DNA from: Deltaproteobacteria bacterium
Lineage (GTDB): Bacteria; Desulfobacterota; GWC2-55-46
Assembly: GCA_015075075.1 (NCBI GenBank)
Contig: JABTVA010000001.1
Location: 51,662-115,661, forward strand
DNA: 64,000 bases
Direction of reading: 5' to 3'
Every line of letters begins with the position of its first letter. Position 1 is the stretch's first letter. Below are positions 12,358 to 48,086 of this stretch, one piece after another. The notes beneath the pieces were generated by a model. The model ran no database searches and was not told where the DNA came from. It was given only the letters and a program-made list of their open reading frames with translations. The translations under genes were made by a program, and so were the position numbers.

Positions 12358-12423
12358 TATGTGAGCATTTTTATTAACGGCCTGACGCTGAGTCCGGGGA
12401 AAATATCAATTTTTAGCTTGCTG
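12283..12423 (+). mobile_element. Family B MITE copy, fused at its right end to family A copy A1
   Basis: GGCAACCTCTAAAAAT...core...TCAATTTTTAGCTTGCTGG. Overlaps the annotated nadC 5' end. Confidence 0.75.
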
Positions 12424-12578
12424 GAAAACTCCGTTTTTATTCAGGCTGCCTCAAAAGCTCCAGATGCGAGGCCCCCATTGGTATAAGGGAGCGAGGAATG
12501 AGGCGTACTTTTCGTGTACGCCGCAATGACGAGCGACGTAGCCTTCGACGCAGATGGACTTTTTCAGCAGCCTGTGTC
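12411..12578 (+). mobile_element. Family A MITE copy A1 (TIR CAGGCTGCTCAAAAAG.../...CTTTTTCAGCAGCCTG; internal hairpin GGCGTACTTTTCGTGTACGCC)
   Basis: One of 7 copies. 26-bp terminal inverted repeats. Confidence 0.8.
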
Positions 12579-12596
12579 AGAGGCTGCCTCAAGCCC

Positions 12597-15278
12597 TTAT
12601 GTTCTGATGCGCTCAAGCCCGGCCTTGAGCTTCCCTGTCTTTTCCTCCAGGACTTCGAGCCTGGCCCTGTCCTTTTCGACCACCTCTGGCGGGGCCTTTT
12701 TCGTGAACTCCTCGTTCCCGAGCATCTTCATAAGTCCCGAGGCTTCCCCCTCGGCCTTTGAAAGCTCTTTCGTAATCCTCTTCTCCTCGACCTCGAAATC
12801 GACGAGCCCGCCGAGCGGCACGAAGACCTCGGCCTTCTTCTGCCCTGCCCCGGCCACGGCTGATACGGAATCCCCGGGCCTCTCGCCTTTTTCGGCTATG
12901 ACGAGCCCCTTTACCCTCGCAAGGAGCTTGATGTACTCCGCCCCCTCCGAAAGCGTCTCTCTCAAGCCCGGGTCGTCGGCAAAGCAGAAGCAGTCGGCCA
13001 TTGCCGACGGCGGCACGTTCATGTCGGTCCGGATGTTCCTCACGGCCCTTATGACGTCCATCACGTCCTCCATGCGCGCGGCCTCGTCGGGAAATGCCCT
13101 GCCCTCTTTCGGGAAGTCACCTGCCATAAGGCTCCCGGCATGGCCCGGCAGCTTCTCTGCTATCTCCTCGGTTATGAAGGGCATGAAAGGGTGGAGTAGC
13201 TTCATGGTGTCCATCATGACCGTCGCGAGGGTAGACTGCGCATCGAGCTTCCTTTCCGCGCCGCTCTCGCCCCTCAGATCAAGCTTTACAAGCTCCACAT
13301 ACCAGTCGCATAGCTCGTGCCAGACGAACCTGTAAAGGACCCTTGCGGCCTCGTCGAACCTGTAGGTGTCGATGGCCTCGATCACCTCCCTTATGCAGGC
13401 GTTCCTCCGCTCCCATATCCATTTATCAGCCATGTTGAAGCGGGACTCGTCCACCCTGGCCCTGCCCGAAGCCATAGCCTCGAAGAACGTCTCGTCGAGG
13501 TTCATCAGAGTGAACCTTGCGACGTTCCAAATCTTATTGCAGAAGTTCCTGTATCCGGCTATGCGGTCCTCTGCGAGCTTTATGTCCCTGCCCTGCGCCG
13601 CGAGCACCGCGAGCGTGAACCTGAAGGCGTCGGTCCCGTACTGCTCCATCATCACAAGGGGGTCTATGACGTTCCCCTTGCTCTTGCTCATCTTCTGCCC
13701 CTTGGCGTCCCTTATGAGGGCATGTATGTAGACCTCCCTGAAAGGCACGTCTTTCATGAATTTCAAGCCCATCATCGCCATCCTGGCGACCCAGAAAAAG
13801 ATGATGTCGAAGCTCGTGGAAAGGACCGATGTGGGATAAAAGGCCTTCAAGTCCCCGGTCTTCTCCGGCCAGCCGAGCGTGGAGAACGGCCAGAGCGCCG
13901 ACGAGAACCAAGTATCCAGCACGTCCGGGTCCTGCTCGATATTTTTACAGCCGCAGCTTTCGCACTTGTCCGGGTCGATGGTCGAGACCGTGACACCGCC
14001 GCAGTCCCTGCAATGCCATGCGGGTATCCTGTGCCCCCACCATATCTGGCGGGAGATGCACCAGTCCCGGATGTTCCTCATCCAGTCGAAATACAGGTTC
14101 TCCCAGTTCTTCGGGACGAACTTTATCCGTCCGTCCTCCACGGCCTCGATGGCCGGGCCGGCCAACGGGGCGACCTTCACGAACCACTGCTTGGAGAGGG
14201 TGGGCTCGACTATGGTAGAGCACCTGTAGCAGCCGCCGAGCATGAGCTTGTGCTTCTCGGTCTTTTCAAGGAGGCCCTTTTCCTCGAGCCCGGATACGAC
14301 CTTTTTCCGGGCCTCATATCTATCCATGCCCTTGAAGGGGCCTGCGTTCTCGTTCATCCTGGCGCTCTCGTCCATCACCTTTATGGACTGTAGCTTGTGC
14401 CTTCTGCCGACCTCGAAGTCGTTAAAGTCGTGTGCGGGGGTGATCTTCACCGCGCCCGTGCCGAACTCTATGGAGACGGAATCGTCCCCTATTACTGGTA
14501 TCTCGCGCTCGACGAACGGCAGCCTGACCTTCTTCCCGATGAGGGCCTTGTACCTCCCGTCCTCGGGGTTTACGGCCACGGCAGTATCGCCGAGCATCGT
14601 CTCGGGCCTGGTGGTTGCGACCGTAAGGTATTCGATGCCGCCAGCAGGCTTGACGAGCGGGTAGCGCATGTACCAGAGGCTGCCTTCGGTCTCGTTGAAC
14701 TCGACCTCGAGGTCGGATAGGGCGGTGTGGCACCTGGGGCACCAGTTTATGATGTAGTCGCCCCGGTATATGAGCCCCTCTTTGTAGAGCGAAGTAAAGA
14801 CCTCGCGGACGGCCCTGGAGAGCCCCTCGTCCATCGTGAAACGGAGGCGCGTCCAGTCGCACGAGGCCCCGAGCCTCTTAAGCTGGTTTATTATCGTGCC
14901 GCCTGACTCGTTCTTCCATTTCCAGACCCGCTCTATGAAGGCTTCCCTTCCGACCTTGTGCCTGTCGAGGCCTTCGGCGGCGAGCTGCTTCTCCACCACG
15001 TTCTGTGTGGCTATGCCCGCGTGGTCTATGCCGGGAAGCCAGAGGACGTTAAAGCCCCTCATGCGCCGGGACCTGGCGAGTATGTCCTGAAGGGTGGAAT
15101 TGAGGGCGTGGCCGAGGTGCAGGGCGCCGGTGATGTTGGGCGGGGGTATGACCATCGAGAAAGACGGTTTTTCCGAGCGCTCCCCGGGGGTCGCGAGCTT
15201 CTCCTTTATCCAGTAATCCGCCCACCGGCCCTCGACAGAGCCGGGCTCGTAAGTCTTCTCAAGCGTCTTCTCGCTCAT
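12597..15278 (-). CDS. valS: Valine--tRNA ligase
   Basis: HLGH and KMSKS motifs, C-terminal coiled coil, 893 aa, intact. Confidence 0.95.
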   Translation of the reverse strand: MSEKTLEKTYEPGSVEGRWADYWIKEKLATPGERSEKPSFSMVIPPPNITGALHLGHALNSTLQDILARSRRMRGFNVLWLPGIDHAGIATQNVVEKQLAAEGLDRHKVGREAFIERVWKWKNESGGTIINQLKRLGASCDWTRLRFTMDEGLSRAVREVFTSLYKEGLIYRGDYIINWCPRCHTALSDLEVEFNETEGSLWYMRYPLVKPAGGIEYLTVATTRPETMLGDTAVAVNPEDGRYKALIGKKVRLPFVEREIPVIGDDSVSIEFGTGAVKITPAHDFNDFEVGRRHKLQSIKVMDESARMNENAGPFKGMDRYEARKKVVSGLEEKGLLEKTEKHKLMLGGCYRCSTIVEPTLSKQWFVKVAPLAGPAIEAVEDGRIKFVPKNWENLYFDWMRNIRDWCISRQIWWGHRIPAWHCRDCGGVTVSTIDPDKCESCGCKNIEQDPDVLDTWFSSALWPFSTLGWPEKTGDLKAFYPTSVLSTSFDIIFFWVARMAMMGLKFMKDVPFREVYIHALIRDAKGQKMSKSKGNVIDPLVMMEQYGTDAFRFTLAVLAAQGRDIKLAEDRIAGYRNFCNKIWNVARFTLMNLDETFFEAMASGRARVDESRFNMADKWIWERRNACIREVIEAIDTYRFDEAARVLYRFVWHELCDWYVELVKLDLRGESGAERKLDAQSTLATVMMDTMKLLHPFMPFITEEIAEKLPGHAGSLMAGDFPKEGRAFPDEAARMEDVMDVIRAVRNIRTDMNVPPSAMADCFCFADDPGLRETLSEGAEYIKLLARVKGLVIAEKGERPGDSVSAVAGAGQKKAEVFVPLGGLVDFEVEEKRITKELSKAEGEASGLMKMLGNEEFTKKAPPEVVEKDRARLEVLEEKTGKLKAGLERIRT

Positions 15279-19134: not shown

Positions 19135-19290
19135 TTTAGCAGGCTGCTCAAAAAGTCCATCTGCGTCGTTGTCTTCGTCGCTCGTCACTGCGGCGTACAC
19201 GAAAAGTACGCCTCATTCCTCGCTCCTCGACGCCTAGCATGGAGCCTTGAGCAGCCTGAATAAAAACGGAGTTTTTCGGCAAGCTGTTAG
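19135..19290 (-). mobile_element. Family A MITE copy A2 (reverse orientation)
   Basis: Reverse complement of the family A consensus. Confidence 0.8.
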
Positions 19291-20076: not shown

Positions 20077-20223
20077 ACCTGCCTGAAGGGAAAAGGGCAT
20101 CGCCTCTTCGTTAACGAAACCGCTGGGACACGTTACAGCGGTCCAGGGGGGATAAATGGATTAAGGACGGTTTATTATATTAAAGGGCGGGGGTAAAAGC
20201 AAGGGATACTCTCGCGTACGCGC

Positions 20224-20384
20224 TATCAGCTTACTGAAAAACTCATTCAGGCTGCTCAAAAAGCTCCAGATGCGAGGCCCCCATTGAAATAGGGGAGCGA
20301 GGCATGAGGCGTACTTTCCGTGTACGCCGCAGTAACGAGCGACGTAGCCTTCGACGCAGATGGACTTTTTCAGCAGCCTGCTAG
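20224..20384 (+). mobile_element. Family A MITE copy A3
   Basis: Consensus match. Abuts the 3' end of the ftsH remnant. Confidence 0.8.
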
Positions 20385-22281
20385 TTGCTTATTTTACGGA
20401 GGGGCTCGACGCCTTTCGTCCTCCTTATTATGTCCTCCACGTCCTCCTTGTCCAGGGACTCGTCCTTGAGGAGCGCGGCCGCAAGCTCCTCTAACGTCTT
20501 CCGCCCCCGTAGAAGGATCTCGTCCGCCTTCCTTTCGGCCGTTATTATAAGGTTCCTTATCTCCTTGTCCATGAGCCAGGCCATCGTCTCGCTGTAGCGC
20601 TTCTGGACCGATATGTCCCTGCCGATGAACGGGTGCTCCTCGCCCCTGCCGAAGTTTATGGGCCCGACCTTGTCGGACATGCCCCACTGGGCGACCATCT
20701 TCTCCGCAAGGGCCGTCGCGTTCTTCAAGTCGTCGTTCGCGCCGCTGCTTACGTACATGAAGACCAGCTTTTCGGCGGCCCTCCCCGCGAGCGCAACACA
20801 GAGCCTGTTTATGAGATAACTCTTCGGGTAATAGTGCCTGTCCTCCTCGGGAAGGAACTGCGTAGCGCCCAGGGCCATGCCCCTCGGTATTATGGAGACC
20901 TTGTGTATGGGGTCCGTATGCGGGAGCTCCCAGGAGACCAGCGTGTGGCCTGCCTCATGGTACGCGGTTATCCTCTTTTCGTCCTCGGAGAAGCTCTCTT
21001 CCCTCTTGGAGCCCATTATAACCCTGTCCCTCGCCTCCTCAAAGTCCCTCATCTCTATACGCTCCTTGCCTTTCTTCACGGCCTCGAGCGCGGCCTCGTT
21101 CATGAGGTTTTCAAGGTCGGCCCCGGTCATGCCGGGGGTTCCCTTGGCTATCTTCTCGAAGTCGATCTCGGGGGCTATCCTCTTGTTCCTCGCGTGGACC
21201 TCGAGAATTGACTTCCTGTCCTTCCAGCCGGGCCTGTCTATGACGATGTGGCGGTCGAAGCGGCCGGGCCTTAAAAGCGCCGGGTCGAGGGACGTCCGGC
21301 CTGTTGGTGGCGGCTATGACTATTATCTCCTCGTGCGGCTCGAATCCGTCCATCTCGCTGGGGCTGGTTCAGGGTCTGCTCCCTCTCGTCGTGCCCCCGC
21401 CGAGGCCCGCGCCCCTGACCCTCCCGACGGAATCTATCTCGTCTGCCAAGAAGATTATCGAGGGCCGGGTCTCGCTGGCCTTCTTGAACATGTCCCTCAC
21501 CCTGGACGCGCCCGCCCACGAACATCTCGACGAACTCTGACGCTTATGCTGAAGAGGGGACGCCGGCCTCGCCTGCCGTGGCCCTCGCAAGGAGCGTCTT
21601 GCCTGTGCCCGGCGGCCCTATGAGGGGTATGCCTTTGGGGACCTTTGCGCCTATCGATGTGAACCGGGCCGGGTTCTTGAGGAACTCGACCGTCTCCTGG
21701 AGCTCCATCTTCGCGTTCTCAAGCCCGGCGACGTTCATGAACGTGATGCTGGGCTTTGCGCATGTTGTGAGCTTCGCCTTGCTCATGCCGAGTTAAGGCC
21801 CTGGCTGCGCCGCCATTGCTGCACTACCCTCTTATGATGAGGAACCAGATTCCGATTATGAGGACCCACGGCAGGAGCAGTATCACGAACTGCCATAAAG
21901 GCGACCCGCCTTCGTCAGGCTCGACGTTTACGGCTATGCCTTTTTTTTCGAATTCCCCCAGTATCTCCGGCCCTGGAACGCGGGAGATAGGTCATGAAGA
22001 CCGGCGGCAGGTCCGGGCGCGCCCTCGGGGCCGGGAACACCCACCTGGACCGGGCTCTTGAACTCGCCGGTCACCTCCTGCCCCTTCATGGTTATCGAGC
22101 GGATGTTCCCGGCCTCGAGCTGCTCCTGGAACTCCGTATAGCTTATCCTCTGCTCGGCCCCTGTCCCCTCCTCGACCGACTGGCCCCATATATAGAGGAA
22201 GAGCCCGAAGAGCACCAGGGCTATCAATATCTTCCATCCGCCCCCCCTCTCGGAGTTGGGGTATTTGGAGTCCTCGGCCAT
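20381..22281 (-). pseudogene. ftsH: ATP-dependent zinc metalloprotease FtsH, disrupted by at least 4 frameshifts
   Basis: Pieces recovered in three frames: N-terminal TM (21934..22281), Walker [14 protein letters not shown] (21544..21786), [13 protein letters not shown] / [10 protein letters not shown] (21271..21590), MDGFEPHEEIIVIAATNRPD (21111..21353) and the HEAGH protease domain (20381..21130). Confidence 0.8.
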
Positions 22282-22439
22282 ATTTAGAGTCTATAAGATA
22301 TTCCGATTAAATCAATCGGCGGGAAATAGATCAGCCTGATGAGACTGGAAGGATTGCAGGATTTTTGAGGAGGTTACGGGTGGACGCGGAGTGCCGGATT
22401 CAGACAACCTCTAAGAATTAGGGAAGGTCTGATTAATTC

Positions 22440-22555
22440 CGTTTCTTGCGGTCATTGCGAGGAGTGAAACGACGAAGCAATCTCAAAGTGCCTGATATTC
22501 AAAAGAAGAGATTGCTTCGCTGCGCTCGCAATGACGAATGCACGAATTAATCAAG
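22440..22555. repeat. Family D palindromic hairpin repeat (GTCATTGCGAGGAGTGAAACGACGAAGCAATCTC ... GAGATTGCTTCGCTGCGCTCGCAATGAC)
   Basis: Long inverted repeat seen in the sequence. Confidence 0.7.
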
Positions 22556-22582
22556 CTTCCTTAGCTATTTTTCCCGAGGTCT

Positions 22583-22680
22583 GCAGGGTGGAAGTAAAAA
22601 GCGAAGCATAGGAGCATATATGAAAATATGTGAGCATTTTTACGCAGAGTCCGGGGAAAAGATTCAATCTTTTAGCAGCT
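22583..22680 (+). mobile_element. Family B MITE copy (left end truncated), fused to family A copy A4
   Basis: Core AGCATATATGAAAATATGTGAGCATTTTTAC...GGGGAAAAGATTCAATCTTTTAGCAGC. Confidence 0.65.
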
Positions 22681-22840
22681 TGCTGAAAAACTCCGTTTTT
22701 ATTCAAACTGCTCAAAAAGCTCCATATGCGAGGCCCCCGTTGGAACAGGGGAACTGGGAATGAGGCGTACTTTTCTTGTACGCCGGAGTGTCAAGCGACG
22801 TAGCCTTCGACGGAGAACGACTTTTTCAGCAGCCTGTTAG
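22670..22840 (+). mobile_element. Family A MITE copy A4
   Basis: Consensus match. Ends at the stop of the downstream kinase gene. Confidence 0.8.
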
Positions 22841-22843
22841 AGG

Positions 22844-25321
22844 TTATGCCGCCGGAAGCCTTATGGAAACGGTGGTGCCTTTACCGGGCTCGGATTCGAA
22901 GTCCATGCTCCCTCCGTGCTCCCTTATTATCGAATAGGATATGGAAAGGCCGAGGCCCGTGCCTCCGGCATCCTCCCTCGTCGTAAAGAAGGGCTCGGTT
23001 ATCCTCTCCAGCACCTCCCTGGACATTCCCGCGCCCTCGTCGCGTACCTCGATGACCACCTCGCCATTTTCCTTGTCATGGAAAGTCCTTACACGGACGC
23101 CCCGAGCCCTCTCCGGGAGCGCGTGGAGGGCGTTGATGACAAGGTTTATGAGCACCTGCTCTATCTTCTGCGAGCTCCCCCGGACGGCAGGGAGGCCCTC
23201 GGCGGTCGAGACCTCGAATTTGTCCGTGTGCTTCATTATCTGGCTGCTCAAGATGGAGACGGCCGCCAGGACCGCCCTGTTCACGTCGAGTTCTCCGTCG
23301 AAGCAGGCCTTGTCCGGCCTCGAGAAGTCCTTCAAGCTATCCACTATCCCCTTTATCCTCCTCGACCCGTCGGTTATCCCTGAAAGGAGCTCGGGTATGA
23401 CCTCGGACATCTCCGAATAAGGGAGCCCCCCGAGGGAGAAGTCCCCGTGCTCCCGGTAATACCCGTCGAGTATCCTTACCGAGTCCTTCCACGCGTCCGC
23501 GAGCAGGGCCGAGTTGAAGAGTATGAAATTATTGGGGTTGTTTATCTCGTGGGCGACACCTGATGCGAGCGTCCCTATTGAGGTCATCTTGTTCGCGTGG
23601 ATGAGCTTGGCCTGCATAAGGCGGGCCTCCTCCTCCATCCTTATGAAGTCGGTCAGGTCCTGGACCGTGCAGAGGACCATCTTACCGTCCTTGAGCTTTA
23701 TGACCTGGCCCCTGGCCGAGAAGGTCACCCTGGTGCCGTCCTTCCTCTCGCCCTCTGCCCTGTCTATCGTGAAACCGGCGTCACGGGCCGAAAGGCTCTT
23801 TATCGCATCCGAGAGGCCGTGGTCCAGAAAGAACGGGGGCGGGTCTGATGAGGCGAGCTCCTCCCTCGAGTACCCGAATAGCGTTATGGCCGCCGGGTTC
23901 GCGTCGGTTATCCTGCAGCTACCGCCATCTATGAGTATCTGCGCGTTCTGGTTCTGCTCGAATATCTGCCTGAACCGCTCCTCGCTTTCCCTCAGGGCGT
24001 CCTCGGCGTTCTTCCGAGCGGTTATGTCCCTTTTTATCCCGAGGGCGAGATCCTTTTCGCCGACCTTGAAGGGCGTTATGGCCATGTCCACCCAGAGGAC
24101 CGAGCCGTCCTTCCTCCGTAGCGGCACCTCCTGCACGAAACCGCCCTTTTTCCAGAGGTCCCTGTGCAGCTTGAGCCTGTCGAACCTCCCGGGGATGGCG
24201 AGCAGGGCCACGTCGGACGAGAGTATCTCCTCGCGCGAATAGCCGACCATCAGGCAGCCCGAGAGGTTTACGTCGAGGTAGCGCCCTTCCATGTCGATGA
24301 CGAACATGCCGTCCATCGCCGATTCGAATATGGTCCTCAGGCGTTCCTCGCTCTCCCTGAGGGCATCTACCGCCTTCCTGCGCTCCGCGGCCTCCTCTAT
24401 GGATTGGAGCGCAAACCCCACGTCCGCCGCGAGGCTCAGAAGGAGGTCCACCATCTTTTCGAAAAAGACCGAGGGGTTTTCGGAGTAGACGGTAAGGGCC
24501 CCGAAGATAGTACCCCTTACCACGAGAGGGAAGGAAGCGCACGCCCTGTAGCCCCGGCTCGCGGCCTCGCCGGCCAGGGGCTTGAGGCCCCCGTCGCCTT
24601 CGATATCAAGGCATACGGAGTAAGAGCCGGAGTCGATGGCCCTGTCCACGGTGCCGGGCCCGGGCGGGATGCCGTCCTGCCTCCTCCGGGCTATCCGGAG
24701 GAAATCATTGTCGCAGCCTGCCGCGGCAAGCGGGACGATCTCGCCTGTCGCTACTCGCGATTTCCCTATCCACGCAGCCATGAACCCGGCCTTTTCAACG
24801 AGTATGCGGCAGGTCTCGGAAAGGACCATCCGCCCGGAGGACTCCCTTACGAGCATCTTGTCGACCTCGGTCAGGGTCTCAAGCAGCCGGTTAAGGGCCC
24901 GGAGCTCCTTTTCAGCCTTCCTGTGCGCCCTTTTCGTGGCATAGTCGCGAAGCTCGCGCTCTATTGCCGGGAGGAGCCTGAAGAGCCTGTCCTTCAGTAT
25001 ATAGTCGTCAGCCCCGGCCTTCATGGTGGTGACCGCCAGGTCCTCGCCCATGAGGCCCGATACGACTATGACCGGCACCTCGAGGCCGCGCTCCCTTACG
25101 GCCTTCACCACCTCGAGGCCGCAGAGCCTCGGCATTATGTAGTCGGATATGATAAGGTCCCAGGGGCCTTTTTCGAGCGCTTCCTGCAGGTCTCTTTCAT
25201 TGTCCACCCTGAGGAAGGACATATCATAGCCGCCGCGCCGGAGCTCGCGCATGAGGAATATGAGGTCGTCTTCCGAGTCCTCGGCGATAAGGACCTTGAG
25301 AGGGATGGTTTCAGGGTGCAT
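22844..25321 (-). CDS. Hybrid sensor histidine kinase: REC-GAF-PAS-PAS-HisKA-HATPase (cytoplasmic)
   Basis: N-terminal REC (DLIISDYIMP), H-box HEINNP, G1/G2 ATPase motifs. Confidence 0.85.
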   Translation of the reverse strand: MHPETIPLKVLIAEDSEDDLIFLMRELRRGGYDMSFLRVDNERDLQEALEKGPWDLIISDYIMPRLCGLEVVKAVRERGLEVPVIVVSGLMGEDLAVTTMKAGADDYILKDRLFRLLPAIERELRDYATKRAHRKAEKELRALNRLLETLTEVDKMLVRESSGRMVLSETCRILVEKAGFMAAWIGKSRVATGEIVPLAAAGCDNDFLRIARRRQDGIPPGPGTVDRAIDSGSYSVCLDIEGDGGLKPLAGEAASRGYRACASFPLVVRGTIFGALTVYSENPSVFFEKMVDLLLSLAADVGFALQSIEEAAERRKAVDALRESEERLRTIFESAMDGMFVIDMEGRYLDVNLSGCLMVGYSREEILSSDVALLAIPGRFDRLKLHRDLWKKGGFVQEVPLRRKDGSVLWVDMAITPFKVGEKDLALGIKRDITARKNAEDALRESEERFRQIFEQNQNAQILIDGGSCRITDANPAAITLFGYSREELASSDPPPFFLDHGLSDAIKSLSARDAGFTIDRAEGERKDGTRVTFSARGQVIKLKDGKMVLCTVQDLTDFIRMEEEARLMQAKLIHANKMTSIGTLASGVAHEINNPNNFILFNSALLADAWKDSVRILDGYYREHGDFSLGGLPYSEMSEVIPELLSGITDGSRRIKGIVDSLKDFSRPDKACFDGELDVNRAVLAAVSILSSQIMKHTDKFEVSTAEGLPAVRGSSQKIEQVLINLVINALHALPERARGVRVRTFHDKENGEVVIEVRDEGAGMSREVLERITEPFFTTREDAGGTGLGLSISYSIIREHGGSMDFESEPGKGTTVSIRLPAA

Positions 25322-28512: not shown

Positions 28513-28565
28513 TTTTTCCGCACCCTGCTAAACCAAGGAACCTACCGCCTTCCAGGCGGTAGTGG

Positions 28566-32553: not shown

Positions 32554-32694
32554 GGTGCCTCTAAAAATTCGGAATTTTTTCAGAGGTCAAGGAAGGGCGG
32601 AAATAAAAAGCGCAGCATATATGGGAATATGTGAGCATTTTTATTTCCGCCCTGACACAGAGATCAGGAAAAAATAACTATTTTAGAGGTGGCC
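32554..32694 (+). mobile_element. Family B MITE copy
   Basis: GGGTGCCTCTAAAAAT...core...ATTTTAGAGGTGGCC. Confidence 0.75.
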
Positions 32695-32796
32695 TATAAC
32701 GATTGGGAGGAATGAGATGGATTTACGTCATGCCGGAATGACATGGACTCGGGGATGGGCGGAATGCTTAAAAGATCCCCTGGACTGTCTGATTAA

Positions 32797-34692: not shown

Positions 34693-36303
34693 TCAAGGGG
34701 AAAAGACCCTCCCCAGCCTGCATATTATGAACTGGTCGTCTATGGAGCTGAACGTGCGGCACTCCTCTTTAATGGCGTACATGTTGAATTTGCCCGCGGT
34801 ACTCTCTATCTGCAATATGTTCGGGAAAGGCACTATGATGTATGCCGGGCCGCTGTGGTTCCTCAAAACCTCCCTCATCTCCGCCTGGAATTTAGTATCT
34901 TTATACGGTGCGGTAAGATTGCTCTCGACCCTTACGAAACGGACGTCCTCGGGGAAAAAGGGTATTATATACGAATAGGGGCGTATCCCGGCCATGAGCA
35001 CCACCGAGTCCCGCTCGATTTCAGCCGGGGGCCGCTTAAGCCCGAAAAGCGTCTCCGACCAGTCCGTCCTCCCCCAGTCAGGGACCTTGACCGCGGAGAC
35101 AATGGCAATGAAGAGCGCGGCGACGGAGAGGCGAAACCAGGGCCTGCTTTTCACAAGGCAGCTTAAAAGCGCCGCTATCAATACCGGAGACAGCAGTTCC
35201 AGCGGCACAAGATATCTGTAGTACGGGAACCTTATCTGCCATACGACGTAAGAGCCGACAAAAAAGACCGTTAGGAATATATCCTTTCTCCTGCCATCCA
35301 GTCCAGCCAGTTTCTCATTTCTCTTTCTGAAAAAAATATAGACCGTCGCAAGGGCCGAGATGACGATTAATATGTAGGCCGCCGCAAAGCGGATGTCCCT
35401 GAAGTGCAGCTCCAACGCCAGGTTGTTCAGGCGCGCGAAATAGAAGGGATAGAAAAGTGTCTGGACGGCGTCGCGGGGGAAGAAACGCAAGTCGGCAATC
35501 TCGACGGGGTCGAAATACCCGGATTTGAAAAAGGAGTTGAAAAACGGGAAAAAGGGGCTGCCGAATTTTTCCCATAGCTTGAGCATCCAGAAACCCGAGG
35601 ACAACAGCATGCCTGAGAAAATACCGAAGCTCCAGCCGACTCCGTTCATAACCGCATCCTTTAGACCCCTCGACACGACAAGAACGGCCATGAGGGCGCC
35701 CGCCGCGTAGATTAATTGAGTGAGTTTAAGCCCGACTCCGGCCCCCATGACAAGGCCGCTAAAGAAGAGAGATAAAAGGAACGCCCTGCGGCCCGCTTTC
35801 TCAAGGGCCCCGAGCATCAGGAGAACCGACAACAGCACGAGGACGGAAACAAGGCTGTCGTTGAGGGTGGCGCCGAGCTCGGAAAGGAACCCGGCCCCGA
35901 ACGTGCCTGTTGCGGCCGTGAAAAACGAAAGGACTATCCTTTTAAGCCCTTCTTCAAAGGTGAATAGCTTAAGGCCTATGAGGTACAGAAGCCAGAAATT
36001 GACCCCGTGCAGGGCTCCCATCACAAAGCCCGCGTACACCGGCGGAAGGTACAGGAAAGAGATATAGAACGGCAGGTCCGTTAAAGGGTTCAGGTAGGTC
36101 TGGAACTGCGCCGGGCCGTAATCAAAACCGAGACGGCCGTTGAGGAAGGCGTACGGGTTGTAGAAATGGTAGTTCTTCAGGTCCCAGTCTATGACCGGGC
36201 CCAAGGCGACCGACAGGGACCCGAAGAAGATAACGCTTATGAAAAGCACCAGTAAACCCTGGGCCCTGAAAGGAGAAAAATTGTTTTTCCGTTCAGCACT
36301 CAT
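34693..36303 (-). CDS. Polytopic membrane protein, GT-C-fold glycosyltransferase-like (DUF2029 / mannosyltransferase-like)
   Basis: About 11 TM helices. Assignment by architecture only. Confidence 0.55.
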   Translation of the reverse strand: MSAERKNNFSPFRAQGLLVLFISVIFFGSLSVALGPVIDWDLKNYHFYNPYAFLNGRLGFDYGPAQFQTYLNPLTDLPFYISFLYLPPVYAGFVMGALHGVNFWLLYLIGLKLFTFEEGLKRIVLSFFTAATGTFGAGFLSELGATLNDSLVSVLVLLSVLLMLGALEKAGRRAFLLSLFFSGLVMGAGVGLKLTQLIYAAGALMAVLVVSRGLKDAVMNGVGWSFGIFSGMLLSSGFWMLKLWEKFGSPFFPFFNSFFKSGYFDPVEIADLRFFPRDAVQTLFYPFYFARLNNLALELHFRDIRFAAAYILIVISALATVYIFFRKRNEKLAGLDGRRKDIFLTVFFVGSYVVWQIRFPYYRYLVPLELLSPVLIAALLSCLVKSRPWFRLSVAALFIAIVSAVKVPDWGRTDWSETLFGLKRPPAEIERDSVVLMAGIRPYSYIIPFFPEDVRFVRVESNLTAPYKDTKFQAEMREVLRNHSGPAYIIVPFPNILQIESTAGKFNMYAIKEECRTFSSIDDQFIICRLGRVFSP

Positions 36304-37947
36304 CTGATGGGTCCAGACGCATTCCGTTCAGGAAGCCTTGCGAGCCTGCAGAGTATGAACCTGTCCTCGCCCTCCGCGGCCAAGCCCTTTGCCGATGAGA
36401 ACGAGCTGCAGTCATCTTTCCTCGCGTACATGCCGTATTCACCGGTTATTTTTTCTATCTGGAAGACATTTGCGAACGGGACCAGCAGATAGACCGGGCC
36501 TGCGTGCTCATTCAGCAACTCCCGGATTTCCTTCTGGTAAAGGGTGTTCTTATGGGGAGCGGTGAAGTTGCTTTCCACTCTTACGAAACGGATGTCTTCC
36601 GGAAAAAACGGGATCAAGTACGAGTACGGCCTCTGACCGGCCATGATCACCACCGAATTCTTCTCGATATACGCAGGAGGCGTCTCCAATCCGAAATAAG
36701 ACTCAGACCAGTTCGTCCGTCCCCAATCCGGGACCTTGACCATCGAGATGATGCCTATAAGGGCCGCTGCAACGGAGAGATAAAACCAGGGCCTGCTCCT
36801 CACAACGTAGCTCAAGAGCACTACTACCAAGGCCGGGGCAAGGAGCTCGAGCGGTATCAGATACCTGTAATACGGGAACCTTATCTGCCATATCACATAA
36901 GAGCCGACGAAGAAAACGGCCAGAAAGAGGTATTTCGAGCTGTCCCAGCCAGGCCGATTTTCACCGGCCTTTCTGAGATAGCGGTGTGCAAGCATCAAGG
37001 CCGAAAGGACAAGCAGGATATAGACTACCGCAAAGCGGACCTCCCTGAAGTACTGTTCAAGCACCAGATAAAAATTTAACCGGGCGAAATAGAAAGGGAA
37101 GAAAAGGGTCTGGATAACTCCCTCGGGAAAGAACCTGGTGTCAGCGATTTCGACTGGATCGAAATAAGGGGATTTGAAAAAAGCATTGAAGAACGGAAAG
37201 AACGGGCTCTCGAACCTCGTCCAGAGCATGTACATCCAGAAACCCGAGGAGGACAGAACACCGGCGGCGATTCCGAAGGCCCATGCGAACGCGCTCGCAA
37301 CGGATCTCTTCAATCCTCTTGAGACGGCAAGGACGGCCATGAAGGCGCCCGCGGCATAGATCAATTGCGTAAGTATCAGCCCGACCCCGGCCCCGAGGAC
37401 AAGGCCGCTCAGGAAAAAGGATATCAAGACCGTCTTGCGCCCCGTTTTCTCAAAAAGCCCCGAGCATCAAGAGGACCGACCACAATACGAATATCGCGAC
37501 GAGGCTGTCGATGAGGGTGGTGCCGAGTACGGACAGGAACCCGGCGCCGAAGGCGCCGGCAGCGGCAGAGGAGAATGAAAGGGCGCTTCTTTTGAGGCCA
37601 TCCTCAAAGGTAAATAGCTTAAGGCCGATGAGGTACAACAGCCAGAAATTAATTCCGTGCAGGGCGCCCAGCACAAAGCCCACGTAAACCGGCTTAAGGT
37701 ACAGAAAGGAAATATAGAACGGCAGGTCCGACAAGGGGTTCAGGTAGGTCTGGAACTGCGCCGGCCCGTAATCGAACCCGAGACGGCCGTTCAGGAAGGC
37801 GTACGGGTTGTAGAAATGGTAGTTCTTCAGGTCCCAGTCCACGACCTGGCCGAAAACGACGGATAGTGCCCCGAAAAAAAGCAGGCTTGAAAGAAGCACC
37901 AGCAGGCTCTGCGCTCCAGGGGTGCGAGAAGGTTTTTTTTGCCGCAT
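36300..37947 (-). pseudogene. Tandem paralog of the upstream GT-C-like membrane protein, split by a frameshift near 37430-37450
   Basis: 37450..37947 encodes the N-terminal third and 36300..37427 the rest. Both align colinearly with 34693..36303 (e.g. DWDLKNYHFYNPYAFLNGRLGFDYGPAQFQTYLNP identical). Confidence 0.6.
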
Positions 37948-41826: not shown

Positions 41827-41990
41827 AGCAGGGTATTGAAAAAACCCTGCCAAGCAATCCACGGATGGATTGCAAATTGCGAAGACTATCCCAAGTCGAG
41901 CAATTTGTAATGCCTGGACGGATTCATTCCGGCCAAGCCGTGGTTGGAAAAGCCCAAAAGGACTTTTTCAATAACCTGATAGGAGGGAGA
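41827..41990 (+). mobile_element. Family C MITE-like repeat, copy 2
   Basis: About 85% identical to 1369-1530. Confidence 0.7.
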
Positions 41991-42151
41991 TTTGGACTAC
42001 GAATGCCCCCTCAATTAGAACAGATAGCACAAATCTGTTTTTTTTGCAATAAATTGTTTAGGTTGCTGGTTTCGCCGGTCGAAATTGGATCCATCCAACC
42101 GTGCCTGAGGGCGCGCTGCCGGCTCCCTGCGGGAGGCGGGCCTTTTTCCCG

Positions 42152-42186
42152 AAAAACCTTGAACATAACGCGGTTTCCGGGTTATC
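42152..42186 (+). promoter_or_regulatory. Putative sigma-70 promoter (TTGAAC-N18-TATCAT) upstream of the dsrE2-like gene
   Basis: Hexamers read from the sequence. Would give a near-leaderless transcript if the ATG at 42196 is used. Confidence 0.35.
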
Positions 42187-42195
42187 ATAACTTTA

Positions 42196-42704
42196 TGGCA
42201 ACCGGTCTTCAGGGCGCTCAGGCGGAGCCCAAAAAGAGCGTCACCATCGTCCTTTTCAGCGGCGACCTCGACAAGGCCATCGCGGCCTTCGTCATTGCCA
42301 CGGCCGCCGCTTCCATGTGCATGAAAGTCAATATCTTCTTCACCTTCTGGGGTCTTAACGCCATAAAGAAAAAGAGCGGGCTCATAAAAGGGCAGAACTG
42401 GATGCAGAAGATGCTGAATATCGTGAACTACGGCCATGCCAGGAAGCTCGCCCTCTCGAAGCTCAACATGATGGGCATGGGACCGGCAATGCTGAAGACC
42501 ATGATGTCGAAAAAGCGGGTGCCGAGCCTCGATGAGTTCATAAAGACCGCTTCCGCCCTGGGCGTAGGGTTCTACGCCTGCGAGATGAGCATGACGGTAA
42601 TGGGCCTCCGGAAGGAAGACTTCATAGACGAGTGCCGCGACGTAATCGGGGCGGTCAGCTATATCTCGATAGCAAGGGACTCGAACGTCAACCTTTTCAT
42701 TTGA
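42196..42704 (+). CDS. DsrE2-like (DsrE/DsrF-like family) sulfur-relay protein
   Basis: VTIVLFSGDLDKAIAAFVIATAAA...IFFTFWGL motif block. Start codon uncertain (42196 ATG or 42238 GTG). Confidence 0.6.
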
Positions 42705-42745: not shown

Positions 42746-42903
42746 TAACAGCTTGCCGTTTTTATTCAGGCTGCTCAAAAAGCTCCAGATGCGAGGCCCC
42801 GTTGGAACAGGGGAACTGGGAATGAGGCGTACTTTTCGTGTACGCCGGAGTGTCAAGCGACGTAGCCTTCGACGCAGATGGACTTTTTCAGCAGCCTGCT
42901 TAA
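42746..42903 (+). mobile_element. Family A MITE copy A5, inserted between dsrE2-like and tusA-like
   Basis: Consensus match. Confidence 0.8.
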
Positions 42904-43165: not shown

Positions 43166-43978
43166 CCGGGATGGCGAAGGTCTACCACCTCGATCTTGAC
43201 AGGAAGGCGATAAAGGGCGCCGCCATCGCGCTCCTCCCGGGCGACCCCGGAGAACAAGGCCCATAGCCGAGGCCGTTTCCCGGGCCTACGGCACCGATTT
43301 CTCCCTCATCGCATCCAGGCGCGAGTTCACGACCTGCCTTACGGAGGCCCTCGGCAGGAAGGTGCTCGTAACCTCCACGGGCATAGGCGGCCCGTCCACA
43401 TCCATAGCAATCGACGAGCTCGCCCAATTGGGCGTCACCCATTTCATACGCGTCGGCACGACCGGGGCCATACAGGACGATATAAAGAACGGGGACTGCG
43501 TAATAACCACGGGCTCGGTCCGCCTCGACGGCGCGTCCACGCACTACGCCCCCATCGAATACCCGGCTGTCGCGGATTTTTCCATAGTGGCGGCCCTCGT
43601 CCTCGGCGCGAAAGAGGCCGGCGTCCGGTTCCATGTGGGCGTGACAGCCTCGTCCGACACCTTCTACCCCGGCGAGGAGAGGTCAGACTCCTTCATGAAG
43701 TACAAGCTCCGGAGGTTCAGGGGCGCTACGAGGGAATGGAAGGCGCTCCATGTGCTCAACTACGAGATGGAGTCCTCGACCCTTCTTACGGTTACCTCTG
43801 CCCTGGGGTTAAGGGGCGGCTGCGTGACCGGGGTCGTGAACAGGGCGCAGCACCGGGAAGATAACCGCGAACGCTTTCTCGCTCCGGACCGAGTCCTGCT
43901 TTGGAGAACGCGGTCAGCTCCAGACAGCGGTTGCCGCAATAATGAGGTTCTTTCTCGAAGACGGATACGGCGTCTGAA
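43162..43978 (+). pseudogene. udp: Uridine phosphorylase (PNP/UDP family) with two frameshifts
   Basis: MAKVYHLDL...ALLPGDPG then a frame shift. STGIGGPSTSIAIDELAQLG..RVGTTGA...YEMESSTLL in a second frame. The C-terminus is in a third frame. Confidence 0.75.
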
Positions 43979-44004
43979 AAGCTCACGGGGCTTAAGAGTC
44001 CTGC

Positions 44005-44192
44005 TTTAGCAGCTTGCTGAACGACGTAGGTGCCGAGGCCCCAGACCTCTGCCTTTTATTCAGGCTGCTCAAAAAGCTCCAGATGCGAGGCCCCCGTTGG
44101 AATAGGGGAACTGGGAATGAGGCGTACTTTTCTTGTACGCCGGAGTGTCCAGCGACGTAGCCTTCGATGCAGATGGACTTTTTCAGCAGCCT
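44005..44192 (+). mobile_element. Family A MITE copy A6, carrying a 32-bp insertion duplicated from 44299-44330
   Basis: CGACGTAGGTGCCGAGGCCCCAGACCTCTGCC inside the left arm is near-identical to CGACGTAGGTGCCGAGGTCCCAGACCTCTGCC within the adjacent ligD-PE gene. Confidence 0.8.
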
Positions 44193-44583
44193 GTACCTTG
44201 ATTACAAGCCAGTTCTTCTCCATAAAGCGGACCAGGGCATATCTCCCGGAAAGCTTCTTCCCGATGAACTCGACCGTTATCCTGTCTTTTTCCCAGGCCT
44301 CCACGACGTAGGTGCCGAGGTCCCAGACCTCTGCCTTGCCGGCGCCGTATCGCCCTTCGGGAATGGTGCCTTCGAAGCCGAAGTAGTCGAGCGGGTGGTC
44401 CTCTACCTCAACAGCCAGCCTTTTTACCCCTGGATTCTCGGGCATTCCCCTGGGGACGGCCCAGCTCTTAAATACCCCTCCCCTTTCGAGCCCCAGGTCG
44501 TAATGCGGGCGTTTTGCCTCGCGGCTGTGCACGGCGAACTTCCGGTTTTCCTTCAATCCGTCCTCCGGGTTGACAGCTCCCAT
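44056..44583 (-). CDS. Stand-alone LigD-type 3'-phosphoesterase domain protein; the C-terminal ~50 codons are read through MITE A6
   Basis: HYDLGLER...SWAVPRG motif. After ...RFMEKNWLVIK the reading frame is a translation of the repeat (RRWTLRRTRKV). Confidence 0.6.
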   Translation of the reverse strand: MGAVNPEDGLKENRKFAVHSREAKRPHYDLGLERGGVFKSWAVPRGMPENPGVKRLAVEVEDHPLDYFGFEGTIPEGRYGAGKAEVWDLGTYVVEAWEKDRITVEFIGKKLSGRYALVRFMEKNWLVIKVQAAEKVHLHRRLRRWTLRRTRKVRLIPSSPIPTGASHLELFEQPE

Positions 44584-44645: not shown

Positions 44646-45149
44646 ATGACCAAGAGGCTCCTCCTGCTTTCAGCGCTTGCAGCCGTTCTCATCTCGGGCT
44701 GCGCGCCGGTCATCTCAAAGGAAACGCTCGGGACCGTCAACCGCGGGCTCGGGTTCGGCGAGGTCGCATCCAGGCCCGCCGACTACGTAGGCGCGTCGGT
44801 GGTCTTCGGAGGGACCATCCTCGAGACCCGTAACGAAGAGGGCCGGACTGTCGTCGAGGTCCTTCAGGAAGGCCTTGATTCGAGGCTCAGGCCCTCAGAG
44901 CGGGGCGAATCCGAAGGGCGGTTCCTTGTCGAGTTCGAGGGGTTCAGGGACCCGGCCATATACTCGAGGGGCAAGAGGATAACCGTCGCGGGCGAGGTCA
45001 TCGGCACCGAGAGGCTCAGTATCGGCAGGGGCACATACGACTATCCGGTAATACAGCCCAGGGAGCATACGCTCCTCGACCCCCCTTCATACGACCCGGG
45101 GCCGCGCATCGGCATAGGCATAGGTCTCGGCTACACCCGCGTGAGGTGA
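44646..45149 (+). CDS. Slp-family outer-membrane lipoprotein
   Basis: Lipobox LISGC, Slp-like length and hydrophilic body. Confidence 0.6.
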   Translation: MTKRLLLLSALAAVLISGCAPVISKETLGTVNRGLGFGEVASRPADYVGASVVFGGTILETRNEEGRTVVEVLQEGLDSRLRPSERGESEGRFLVEFEGFRDPAIYSRGKRITVAGEVIGTERLSIGRGTYDYPVIQPREHTLLDPPSYDPGPRIGIGIGLGYTRVR

Positions 45150-47785
45150 CCGGCCTCCCCGCCGACAGTCCTCAGGAATGCCTTGACCACCTCCGGGTCG
45201 AACTGCGTGCCCGAGCACCTCTTGAGCTCCCGCAGGATGTTCTCCAGGGGCAGGCCCTTCCTGTAGGGCCTGTCGGCGCTCATGGCATCCACCGTGTCCG
45301 CCACGGCCAGTATGCGCGCCATGAGCGGTATCTCGCCGCCCTTGAAGCCCCCGGGATAACCCGACCCGTCGTATGACTCGTGATGGTGCATTATGGCAGG
45401 AACTATCCTCTTCATCTGCCTTATGGGCGAGAGTATGTCCGCGCCCTTCTGCGGGTGCCTCCTTATGACGGCTATCTCCTCGTCGGTGAGCCTGCCGGGC
45501 TTATCCAGTATGGACTCGTAGGTCCCGAGCTTACCTATGTCGTGGAGGAGCCCCGCGAGCTCCATGTCCTTGAGATCCTCCGCCGAGAAGGACATCTCGC
45601 GCGCTATTTCCATCGCGTATTTCGTGACCCTGTCCGAGTGCCCCTTGGTCCAGGAGCTCTTGGCGTCGATCGCCTCGGAAAGGGTCTTCACTATGCCGAG
45701 GAAGAGCTCGCTCAAGTCGCTTACGAGCCGCGCGTTCTCGAGGGCCACGCCTATCTGTGAGGCGAGCTTCTCCATGACCGATAAGTCGTCGGAGGTAAAG
45801 GCGGCCTTCCTCCTGGCCCCGACCGTAAGCACCCCGACCACCTCTCCCTTTATCGCGAGCGGGACCCTGAGGTGCGAAAGGAAACCGTCCTTGAATAAGG
45901 CCTCCTCGAGGCGCTGCCTGACGGATTCGTTTATATCAGGCACGAACTGCGGCCTGCCGGTACTCAGTATGTCGGTCGTAGTCGTGTCAGAAAACGGGAT
46001 GAGGCTGCCTTTCTCAAGGGATATTCCGAAGCCCGCCTCGTATACGAACCCGCCCTTCTCCCTGTCGACGAGGGCCACGGTGGCCCGGTCGCAGGAGATT
46101 ATCTTCGAGACCATCCGGGCGGCTATCTCCAGTATCTCGTTGGGCTCGAGGGTGGAGAGGATGGACTTGTCTATCTCGTGCATTATGCTTATGGTCTCGA
46201 CCTTCCTCGAAAGGTCGAGCGCCCTGTCTATCGAGTCCTGGTAGAGCTTGGCCTCGTCCAGCGCGGTCGAGACCTGGTAGGATATGCCGCCGAGCACCTC
46301 CTTGTCCCTCCTTGTAAGCCCTCCGCTGTACTTGCCAGGCGGGCAGGTATAGAGGCAAAGGAGGACCCCCAGCCATTCGCTTTTGCGGACAAGGGGCAGG
46401 ATTATCGCGGCCTCGGCGCCCCCCGACCATTCGAGCGCCTCTTTTCCCCCGCCGCCGCCCTCGAAGACCTCGATACCCGGGCCGGACTCCATCGCTTTCA
46501 TGATGAACGGCAGGTCGGGCTTAAGCGGGTTTACCCTGAAGAGGGAGGCCAGGTCGGCCGGGAGCCCCTTCTGGGCCGAGGGCTCCAGGACGCCTTTTTC
46601 CCTGTCCCAGAGGTACGAAATGCAGCAGTCCGCCTCCATTATGGAAAGAAGGCTCTCGACCACGTGCCCCATGAGCTTGTCTATGTCCGTCGTGTGCTCG
46701 GTGGCAAAGGCTATGGCGAGGAGGTGCCTCGTTATCTCCATCTCCTCTTTCATCCTCTGCGAGGTCTCCTTAAGCTCGCTGAAGAGCTTCGCGTTCCTGA
46801 TGCAGAGGGCCGCGTGGTTCGCAAGGGTCTGGAGGAACGGGACCTCGTTCTGGGGGAACTCTTCTTTCGCGGAGCATATGGTGAGAACGGCAATGGGCTT
46901 CCCGGCCTCGGTTATCGGAAAAGAGGCCGCGGACCCCGGCCCGGCTTCCGTACCGTCCGGGACGGCCTTCCACGGGGCCGGGACCCGGTTTTGGACCTCC
47001 GGGACCCCGCTCCTTACGGCCCTCGACGAGAGATCCCCGGCGCACTGCAAATGACCGGAAGGGTCCAGTGCGGCCTCGGTCACCGAAGGTGAGCGCCCAT
47101 CGTCGGCCGTTGCTAACGTCCGCGGCAGTATCTCTCCGGTATCGGGGTCGAGGAGCCCCACCCATGCCATCCTGAAGCCGAAGCTGACGGCCGTGCCGCA
47201 TATCCTCTTGAGCCTGAACTCGAGATCTAAGCTCCCCATTACGTCCTGCGAGAGCTCGTATACGAGCCTTTCCCTCTCGGTCCTCCTCTTCTCCTCCGTT
47301 ATGTCCCGGAATATCTGGATGGCGGTGGGCTCCTCCTTTTCAAGCACGTAAAAGCTCACGTTGTAGACCCTGTCGGGGCCCGCAATCCTTATCTCCTCCG
47401 TGCAGGCGTGCGGCTCCCCCTTTCCGAGCATGTGCCTGCACGCCTCGAAGGGCCCGTCCATCTTCGGGAAGACCTCGTAATACCTCCTCCCGATTATCGA
47501 GCTGAAAGGCATGCCTGCGGCGTCCTGGTAGGCCCTGTTGCATTTCAAGACCCTCATGTCGGAATCGTGGATGAGTATGGGGTCGAGTATGCTGTCGAAG
47601 GTCGCTTCCCATTCCCTCTTGGACTTCATGATGCCCTCGGCAATGGCGGTGTTGTCCTCGAGGAGCGAGAGCATCGCACGGCGCGTGCTCATGAACTCCT
47701 TTTCGCGCTCCATTGCCCTTTCAAGCTCTTTCCTGAGCTTTCCCAGTTCCGCGGAGGCGCGGTCGTTTGAGGCGGGTTTATGCAA
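45131..47785 (-). CDS. PAS-GAF-GAF-GAF-HD-GYP c-di-GMP phosphodiesterase
   Basis: C-terminal HD (LLHDIGK) and HHHESYDGSGYP motifs, 884 aa, intact. Confidence 0.85.
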   Translation of the reverse strand: MHKPASNDRASAELGKLRKELERAMEREKEFMSTRRAMLSLLEDNTAIAEGIMKSKREWEATFDSILDPILIHDSDMRVLKCNRAYQDAAGMPFSSIIGRRYYEVFPKMDGPFEACRHMLGKGEPHACTEEIRIAGPDRVYNVSFYVLEKEEPTAIQIFRDITEEKRRTERERLVYELSQDVMGSLDLEFRLKRICGTAVSFGFRMAWVGLLDPDTGEILPRTLATADDGRSPSVTEAALDPSGHLQCAGDLSSRAVRSGVPEVQNRVPAPWKAVPDGTEAGPGSAASFPITEAGKPIAVLTICSAKEEFPQNEVPFLQTLANHAALCIRNAKLFSELKETSQRMKEEMEITRHLLAIAFATEHTTDIDKLMGHVVESLLSIMEADCCISYLWDREKGVLEPSAQKGLPADLASLFRVNPLKPDLPFIMKAMESGPGIEVFEGGGGGKEALEWSGGAEAAIILPLVRKSEWLGVLLCLYTCPPGKYSGGLTRRDKEVLGGISYQVSTALDEAKLYQDSIDRALDLSRKVETISIMHEIDKSILSTLEPNEILEIAARMVSKIISCDRATVALVDREKGGFVYEAGFGISLEKGSLIPFSDTTTTDILSTGRPQFVPDINESVRQRLEEALFKDGFLSHLRVPLAIKGEVVGVLTVGARRKAAFTSDDLSVMEKLASQIGVALENARLVSDLSELFLGIVKTLSEAIDAKSSWTKGHSDRVTKYAMEIAREMSFSAEDLKDMELAGLLHDIGKLGTYESILDKPGRLTDEEIAVIRRHPQKGADILSPIRQMKRIVPAIMHHHESYDGSGYPGGFKGGEIPLMARILAVADTVDAMSADRPYRKGLPLENILRELKRCSGTQFDPEVVKAFLRTVGGEAGHLTRV

Positions 47786-47925
47786 GAGGTCTTCTCCTCC
47801 GGGGCGGCCCCCTGGCTTAAGGGCCGCCGAACCTCCCTGGAGGTCGGGATGCGGGTTTCAGGTTGAAGGGAGAACTGAAATGCGAGGCGCGCAAGGTGAA
47901 TGGCGGGTTGGTTATCTAACAGCTT

Positions 47926-48086
47926 GCTGAAAAACTCCGTTTTTATTCAGGCTGCTCAAAAAGCTCCAGATGCGAGGCCCCCCGTTGGAATAGGGGGCGG
48001 AGGAACAGGCGTACTTTTCGTGTACGCCGCAGGATGACGAGCGGCGAAGACAACGACGCAGATGGACTTTTTCAGCAGCCTGCTAA
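47926..48086 (+). mobile_element. Family A MITE copy A7
   Basis: Consensus match. About 10 nt from the rpe remnant stop. Confidence 0.8.

Follow-up and report, generated by a model that had tools for sequence, protein, structure and literature searches.

The DNA considered here, termed the window throughout, is the full 64,000-nt stretch taken from the assembly of a Deltaproteobacteria bacterium (GCA_015075075.1, contig JABTVA010000001.1). [quoted passage not shown] The limits of the seven copies, given without the flanking 4-bp duplications, are as follows.

Copy 1, 12417-12574, + strand: flanks TTAG/TGTC, with a left end that is short by 3 nt.
Copy 2, 19140-19286, - strand: perfect TTAG duplication at 19136-19139 and 19287-19290.
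Copy 3, 20227-20380, + strand: flanks CTAT (20223-20226) and CTAG (20381-20384).
Copy 4, 22676-22836, + strand: perfect TTAG/TTAG duplication at 22672-22675 and 22837-22840.
Copy 5, 42749-42898, + strand: flanks CTAA/CTTA, the outer left end having a deletion of 10 nt.
Copy 6, 44010-44193, + strand: flanks TTAG/TACC, with an insertion of ~31 nt separating the outer and inner left ends.
Copy 7, 47920-48082, + strand: perfect CTAA/CTAA duplication at 47916-47919 and 48083-48086.

All of the copies are intergenic, as had been proposed, each being located between Pfam-supported genes as judged from the window ORFs and the gene calls of a near-identical contig (L119, described below). Copy 1 lies between the valS stop (12597) and nadC, copy 5 downstream of a DsrE-like gene (41865-42704), copy 6 between a phosphorylase-family gene (43362-44009) and a Slp-family gene, and copy 7 has the start of an HD-GYP-type gene (45131-47785, - strand) on one side and the rpe fragments, by their 3′ end, on the other. 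With regard to transcription, two window copies are sense and three antisense, with copy 2 scored both ways due to conflicting flanking-ORF calls, and copy 7 unclassified. The window was also said to be free of a transposase, and this holds for the type relevant here: tblastn finds no IS5/IS1182-type transposase in it, and none is present amongst the 40 Pfam-scanned ORFs, 36 of which are of at least 130 aa.

The number and positions of the copies are borne out by motif, hairpin and profile matches alike. A 27-nt left motif has six matches in the window at three or fewer mismatches, with none expected by chance; the seventh copy, copy 2, goes unmatched, having a 4-nt deletion within the motif. 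The shared internal hairpin, GGCGTACTTTTCGTGTACGCC, is found in all seven (four exact matches, and three with one mismatch, where 0.01 are expected), and an nhmmer search with a profile made from family A copies returns exactly these seven within the 64 kb. A repeat search of the window also recovers the family, as direct repeat D1 and inverted pairs I1-I9. The copies are 147-184 bp in length, display pairwise identities of 86-97 % over aligned positions, and have no coding capacity, with the single internal ATG lost in many of them; a small ORF starting from GGAATG was rejected, as this ATG is not conserved. Six of the seven do share one orientation, but this apparent bias lacks statistical significance (two-sided binomial p = 0.125). 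Copy 2, the only one on the - strand, is also without the small CCCC/GGGG hairpin.

Alignment of the copies together with their flanks locates the ends of the element, as similarity begins with YTAR followed by CAGCTTGCTGAAAAA and finishes with TTTTTCAGCAGCCTG followed by YTAR. The 26-bp terminal inverted repeat (TIR) described in the original prediction is a real repeat, but is sub-terminal on the left side, where it is formed by a second, more internal occurrence of the left end (CAGGCTGCTCAAAAAGCTCCAGATGC) that pairs with the right end. In a similar manner, what had been described as a second outer terminus is indeed present, but constitutes the functional left end rather than an accessory. 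Thirteen of 15 bases are complementary between CAGCTTGCTGAAAAA on the left and TTTTTCAGCAGCCTG on the right, with the inner left copy providing the better match. The target-site duplication, previously left to be defined, is 4 bp long and falls at YTAR, being perfect in three of the seven copies and one base off in a further two. Read along the element, the perfect examples are CTAA, CTAA and TTAG (the TTAG of copy 2 on the + strand being CTAA on the element strand), all of them non-palindromic direct repeats, and in other genomes at least five family A copies carry perfect TTAA, CTAG, TTAG or CTAA duplications. Duplication at a 4-bp YTAR therefore points to a partner of the IS5 family, rather than to one of the TA-duplicating IS630/Tc1 type.

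Empty sites were sought in contigs reached through near-identical and related homologues of the window ValRS. One of these (L119; GCA_048500075.1, contig JASNYS010000002.1) belongs to the same species, with 99.67 % identity over 22.7 kb, and carries copies 1-4. Two others, L120 and L121, represent a sister species, the ValRS of which is 91 % identical, and the DNA ~84 % identical, to that of the window. Copy 1 is common to both, their contigs ending inside it, and its presence in the related-species contig L121 marks it as an older insertion. For copies 2 and 3, the site in L120 is empty. Where the window reads GGT TTAG, then copy 2, then TTAG GCC, L120 has GGT TTAG GGC, with a single TTAG; likewise, the arrangement of CTAT, copy 3 and CTAG TTGCTTAT corresponds to GAG CTAG TTGCTTAT in L120, and the aligned blocks abut at window 20225/20380. 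L120 is also without copy 4 and the element hosting it, a member of the D2 family considered below, so that a spacer of 57 bp stands against 479 bp in the window. The CTAG at copy 3 includes the stop codon of ftsH (TAG on the - strand), and because the duplication regenerates this codon, ftsH is untouched by the insertion; in L119 the ftsH end is the base adjoining the family A element.

In L122, a more distant relative, the valS and nadC genes share a 4-bp overlap (12667-12670), whilst in the window ~240 bp of MITE DNA lies between them. The predicted nadC start in the window falls inside MITE-derived sequence (12357-12597, two nested MITEs), and the 5′ end and translation signals of this gene may have been replaced by MITE insertion. 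A separate matter is that several window genes are split into multiple ORFs, namely ftsH (20381-22290), rpe (48083-48942), nadC (11365-12357) and the ribonucleotide reductase gene (48852-50580). In L119, both ftsH (637 aa) and nadC (327 aa) are intact, and comparison of the two sequences reveals 46 gap positions over 22.7 kb, which points to assembly indel errors rather than pseudogenes. Given these gaps and split genes, reading frames from the window need to be handled with care.

A scan for the 19-nt end GGACTTTTTCAGCAGCCTG, using one genome per species and with all counts being lower bounds, yields more than 116 loci among the matches listed, nearly all of which continue with CTAG, CTAA or TTAG. 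Among these same matches, the exact terminus is found in Nitrospirota, 'Deltaproteobacteria' and Thermodesulfobacteriota metagenome-assembled genomes (MAGs), in Acidobacteriota and Alphaproteobacteria, and additionally in Verrucomicrobiota, Planctomycetota and Actinomycetota. In Acidobacteriota, Alphaproteobacteria and other groups, the interiors that it caps are many and unrelated. Full insertion sequences (ISs) of 1.3-1.4 kb start with CAGGCTGCTGAAAAAGTCC and have CTTTTTCAGCAGCCTG as their right end, exactly so in L016 and with 1-3 bases different in the others; their 4-bp flanks are CTAG/CTAG in four (L100, L045, L016 and L008) and TTAA/TTAA in L114. The ORF of these elements begins 54-115 nt from the element end, and the three proteins scanned, of 361-377 aa, harbour Pfam domains DUF772 and DDE_Tnp_1. 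Their scores are 236-272 bits against the NCBIfam model NF033581, 'IS5 family transposase' (cut-off 140), and 201-207 bits against the IS1182 model, which is under its cut-off of 270.

Rhizobial plasmids carry close relatives, which bear the annotation IS5 family transposase and have CAGGCTGTTGAAAAAG ends, with an example from S. meliloti bounded by ttag and CAGGCTGTTGAAAAAG on one side, and by CTTCTTCAACAGCCTG and ctag on the other; more distant plasmid relatives (~31 % identity) are IS1182-family members. A metagenome scan with a relaxed pattern contributes 36 further full ISs, all with the same terminus, and in every one whose contig includes the upstream flank this is YTAR-like. None of the 36 was located with a family A copy. 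There is a resemblance between ends of the family A type and the IS5 inverted repeat. The interior of family A has no similarity to the full ISs found, only the ends matching, and hence the family is to be viewed as a MITE that shares IS termini alone.

Far from being confined to the window, family A occurs across many genomes and phyla. Family A proper, defined as the ends together with the central hairpin, is present in several groundwater 'Deltaproteobacteria' MAG species (including JACRCL01, JACRET01, JACRNL01, JACRNN01, JACRNO01 and MGPL01), in one Thermodesulfobacteriota MAG, in many Nitrospirota/Nitrospiraceae MAGs, and in a cultured Firmicute, Sedimentibacter hydroxybenzoicus DSM 7310. 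In the latter, a GC-rich family A-type element lies at 4489-4616 of L113, and the terminus is also seen at ~5355 of L034, giving at least two occurrences, which suggests that the element was acquired recently, by horizontal transfer, from donors of a Nitrospirota- or Thermodesulfobacteriota-like kind. Most carriers are MAGs, for which binning errors are possible; however, the Sedimentibacter isolate and the long contigs make such error unlikely as a general explanation.

Family A is very probably a MITE, a transposable but non-autonomous element whose ends are borrowed from one clade of IS5-family ISs. The original prediction of a MITE is upheld in this respect by the inverted repeats, the 4-bp duplication, the empty sites, the autonomous relatives elsewhere and the breadth of spread. 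In the mechanism proposed, a DDE transposase (DUF772 plus DDE_Tnp_1, NF033581) would be produced by a full-length IS elsewhere and act in trans, with the partner IS in the host genome carrying CAGGCTGCTGAAAAAG-type ends. The enzyme would bind the terminal ~16-19 bp (CAGSYTGCTGAAAAA on the left and TTTTTCAGCAGCCTG on the right), and the element would be inserted at a YTAR tetranucleotide by way of a 4-bp staggered cut, such that YTAR is duplicated. This motif holds a stop codon in either orientation, and is therefore scarce within genes and common at gene ends. Because YTAR is depleted in reading frames, copies would gather in intergenic DNA, sometimes, as at ftsH, on the stop codon itself, which explains the location of all copies at gene ends that the original prediction pointed out. 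Other MITEs are targets as well, copies 1 and 4 each having inserted into the TTAG of one.

The hosts of these two copies are elements of a MITE-like family, D2, of ~145 bp and with the TIR GGCAACCTCTAAAAAT ... ATTTTTAGAGGTTGCC. Its members are:

9046-9190: D2 family element.
12283-12593: D2 family element, with copy 1 nested in its right TIR.
~22400-22850: D2 family element, host of copy 4.
30127-30259: D2 family element, intact.
32551-32695: D2 family element, intact.
50640-50755 (or to 50775): D2 family element, intact.

The D2 family is shared with the groundwater MAG JACRCL01 (loci L116, L095 and L052) at 86-92 % identity. Copies 1 and 4 occupy the same TTAG of the D2 right TIR, at the junction of ATTTTTAG and AGGTTGCC, which indicates a hot spot or, alternatively, that the two elements moved together as a composite.

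Several observations weigh against the MITE interpretation. As a result of their common position within D2, copies 1 and 4 may not be independent insertions. The transposase is absent not only from the window, but also from the fetched 'Deltaproteobacteria' and Nitrospirota MAG loci that carry family A. A search for a direct parent in metagenomes, combining the extended end GTCCATCTGC with a conserved transposase motif, gave zero matches, and in none of the 36 metagenome ISs does the match to family A extend past the initial 19-22 nt. Copies differ from one another by 3-14 %, and two have unrecognisable duplications, so at least some insertions must be old. That the host genome has, or once had, a partner is presumptive, as are mobilisation in trans, activity at the present day and any role for the doubled left end or the central hairpin.

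Each family A copy folds into a long imperfect hairpin, within a moving unit that in this lineage is composed of the extra outer left end, a linker of ~12 nt and a near-palindrome of 125-140 bp. The near-palindrome in turn comprises the terminal helix (the 26-bp repeat discussed above), a variable middle and the conserved central hairpin, GGCGTAC-loop-GTACGCC. Structure was evaluated in 50 copies drawn from all lineages, using a hand-defined terminal helix and the 7-bp central hairpin. Together these are 95 % paired, with ten pairs changed on both sides, values that are reached by none of 500 shuffles; slid controls are only 33-42 % paired. The loop of the central hairpin varies freely, its closing pair alternates between C-G, G-C, U-A and A-U, and the pair at its base passes from G-C to G-U to A-U. 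The compensatory pairing of this hairpin, the flanks of which drift as its loop does, spans several 'Deltaproteobacteria'/Thermodesulfobacteriota MAG lineages and Nitrospirota MAGs as well as the Sedimentibacter isolate, and in Nitrospirota a sub-family alignment extends it by further covarying pairs.

Not all of the apparent rod is supported in this way. In the sub-family of the window, the stretches that link the terminal helix to the hairpin show no greater complementarity than do arms that have been shuffled or mismatched, and consequently the rod is real there only at the terminal helix and central hairpin. RNAalifold returns no consensus structure from a mixed MAFFT alignment, which can be attributed to the sub-families not being structurally aligned. 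Covariation in the terminal helix is to be expected, because one transposase must fit both ends; only the covariation of the central hairpin hints at anything beyond a selfish element. It is unlikely that the central hairpin, with its Nitrospirota extension, is a structured module that has a function and that an IS5-type MITE has carried from phylum to phylum. Were this so, it is possible that the hairpin is needed by the transposition machinery or a host nuclease, or that it is an RNA element exapted at gene ends, and family A would then stand as a cross-phylum exception to the reported genus-specificity of prokaryotic MITEs. Most likely, the central hairpin is a structural feature tolerated or required for the persistence of the element, rather than one with a host function.

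A rival proposal, in which family A is mainly a module of structured RNA or single-stranded DNA (for example a small RNA, or a hairpin with a part in regulation or processing) under host-level selection, with the IS5-type ends serving only to spread it, seems very unlikely. It draws on the pairing and two-sided changes described above, on the manner in which the stem covaries whilst the hairpin loop drifts, and on the fold of copy 7, which exceeds that of shuffled sequences at z = -3.9 as RNA and z = -4.7 as DNA. The + strand also folds better in 42 of the 50 copies, by 4.4 kcal/mol on average, an asymmetry that is significant, but in a sample of copies that are not independent; it is small, may be explained by one conserved C-C versus G-G mismatch, and is not taken as evidence for an RNA. 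Correction of quasi-palindromes by template switching can mimic compensatory changes, covariation in the terminal helix is in any event expected, and the middle arms are no more complementary than controls. Rfam 15 gives no match at the gathering score, and nothing over family A copies at E-values of up to 0.5. A scan for intrinsic terminators detects no terminator-like site within the copies, and their orientation relative to the upstream gene is without bias, with 26 sense and 24 antisense amongst the 50 copies on the basis of heuristic gene calls.

Two further explanations concern the mode of spread, and each can be set aside almost entirely. In the first, family A would belong to the TA-duplicating MITEs of the IS630/Tc1-mariner type. 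Every flank does contain TA, the ends have a TA-CAG...AAAAAG look, and their CAG start and run of A residues resemble Tc1-like inverted repeats. However, the bases beside TA are repeated directly and not inverted, as the non-palindromic CTAA/CTAA and TTAG/TTAG demonstrate, and hence the duplication is one of 4 bp rather than of TA within an extended inverted repeat. Moreover, the empty sites retain one whole YTAR, and the autonomous elements with these ends encode IS5-family DUF772/DDE_Tnp_1 transposases. In the second, equally improbable, the copies would have arisen by local segmental or tandem duplication, as the upstream flank common to copies 1 and 4 could imply; but this flank is the D2 MITE, the flanks of the remaining copies are unrelated, the family is found in many genomes and phyla, and the exact junctions, 4-bp duplications and matching empty sites all speak for transposition. 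REP/BIME elements are palindromes of 20-40 bp with a GTAG-type head, an associated Y1 transposase and no target duplication. An origin of this kind, moved by RAYT, is excluded by the size of ~150 bp, the 4-bp duplication and the DDE-type relatives, a GTAG head and a Y1 transposase not having been searched for.

Beyond family A, the window holds at least three other element types with IS5-type ends:

1374-1526, no strand assigned: second MITE family, with ends CAGGGTGTTGAAAAA ... TTTTTCAACATCCTG and then TTAG.
41829-41978, no strand assigned: second copy of this second MITE family, with flanks ATAG/ATAG.
28434-28527, + strand: partial element with an unrelated palindromic interior (GTCATTGCGAG...) and the same right terminus, GGACTTTTTCCGCACCCTG, then CTAA.
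505-519, + strand: solo left terminus, TAG then CAGGTTGCTGAAAAG, immediately past a gene end, with a perfect hairpin following it.

The hairpin that follows the solo terminus and the gene end (518-559; GAGAGAACCTTTTTATAAAAAGGTTCTCTC) is long as well as perfect. It reaches 37.7 bits against Rfam plastid 3′UTR (untranslated region) hairpin families, below the gathering score of 48.5, and is probably a terminator-like palindrome. A palindromic module, GTCATTGCGAGCGAAGCGAAGCAATCTC ... GAGATTGCTTCG ... CTCGCAATGAC, is present at 28434-28504, 32965-33035 and ~22440-22540, in both orientations, and is in one instance joined to an IS5-type right terminus. Elsewhere, 61965-62834 contains a cluster of 66-92-nt repeats with the inverted ends TAGGGTGCGCTGCGCGCACC ... 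GGTGCGCACAGCGCACCCTA, in what is the lowest-GC part of the window (52 %), and these repeats may constitute another small mobile or palindromic family. Finally, 34693-37947 encompasses paralogous ORFs in tandem, two or three in number (536, 375 and 165 aa), with 66-82 % DNA identity and a spacing of ~1650 bp, for which there is no Pfam match.

Collectively, family A is an ordinary kind of mobile DNA, but a previously undescribed family that exists in several bacterial phyla; a full-text literature search on the terminal sequences returns no description of it or of its terminus. The family explains much of the intergenic DNA of this region, and the contig breaks downstream of valS in related MAGs. 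It additionally provides a landing rule for insertions, YTAR at gene ends and inside other MITEs, and in ftsH a case in which target duplication can regenerate a stop codon. More broadly, it appears that a single clade of the IS5 family, the 19-nt end of which is almost invariant, serves many unrelated MITE families in at least eight phyla of soil and groundwater bacteria. The shared clade end and the covarying hairpin that crosses phyla are of note to curators of mobile elements, whilst the understanding of MITEs as such is unchanged. In a recent survey, prokaryotic MITEs were largely genus-specific (PMC11602168). Against this, a span of Nitrospirota, Thermodesulfobacteriota-like lineages and a Firmicute is unusual, and would be explained by horizontal transfer in shared habitats.

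With regard to known systems, MITEs that share only their TIRs with IS5-family elements, including TIR identity between phyla, have been described before as BrickBuilt, MITE293 and MITE700 in Porphyromonas gingivalis, and as ATR/ISNme1 in Neisseria (PMC4596501). Like family A, the P. gingivalis elements and Neisseria ATR are non-coding, possess TIRs that are identical in unrelated phyla, and are nested in other mobile elements (PMC4596501). They differ in having TIRs of their own, of the GAGACCTTTGCA type, and BrickBuilt is further distinguished by variable or absent duplications and an internal minisatellite, in place of the regular 4-bp YTAR duplication and hairpin core of family A. Correia elements of Neisseria and the ERIC/IRU-type MITEs of enterobacteria resemble it in being intergenic, ~100-200 bp in length and with inverted ends of ~26 bp, and in folding into a long hairpin when co-transcribed (PMC10969869). 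Correia elements, however, duplicate TA, carry IHF and promoter-like sites, and have no sequence similarity to family A. Chunjie, a MITE from Geobacter uraniireducens (178-235 bp), which is inserted in an operon, is alike in size, in its many intergenic copies and in belonging to a related environmental 'delta-proteobacterial' group, this comparison being by description only (PMC10969869). For IS5 itself, the element of Escherichia coli duplicates 5′-YTAR-3′, a motif whose frequency per kb is about doubled in non-coding DNA (PMC5009759). Family A shares with the IS5 family (the NF033581 clade) this 4-bp YTAR duplication, the terminal ~16-19 nt and a preference for non-coding DNA; it departs from it in lacking a transposase and any interior similarity to the full-length elements found, and in that its left end is doubled and its central hairpin conserved.

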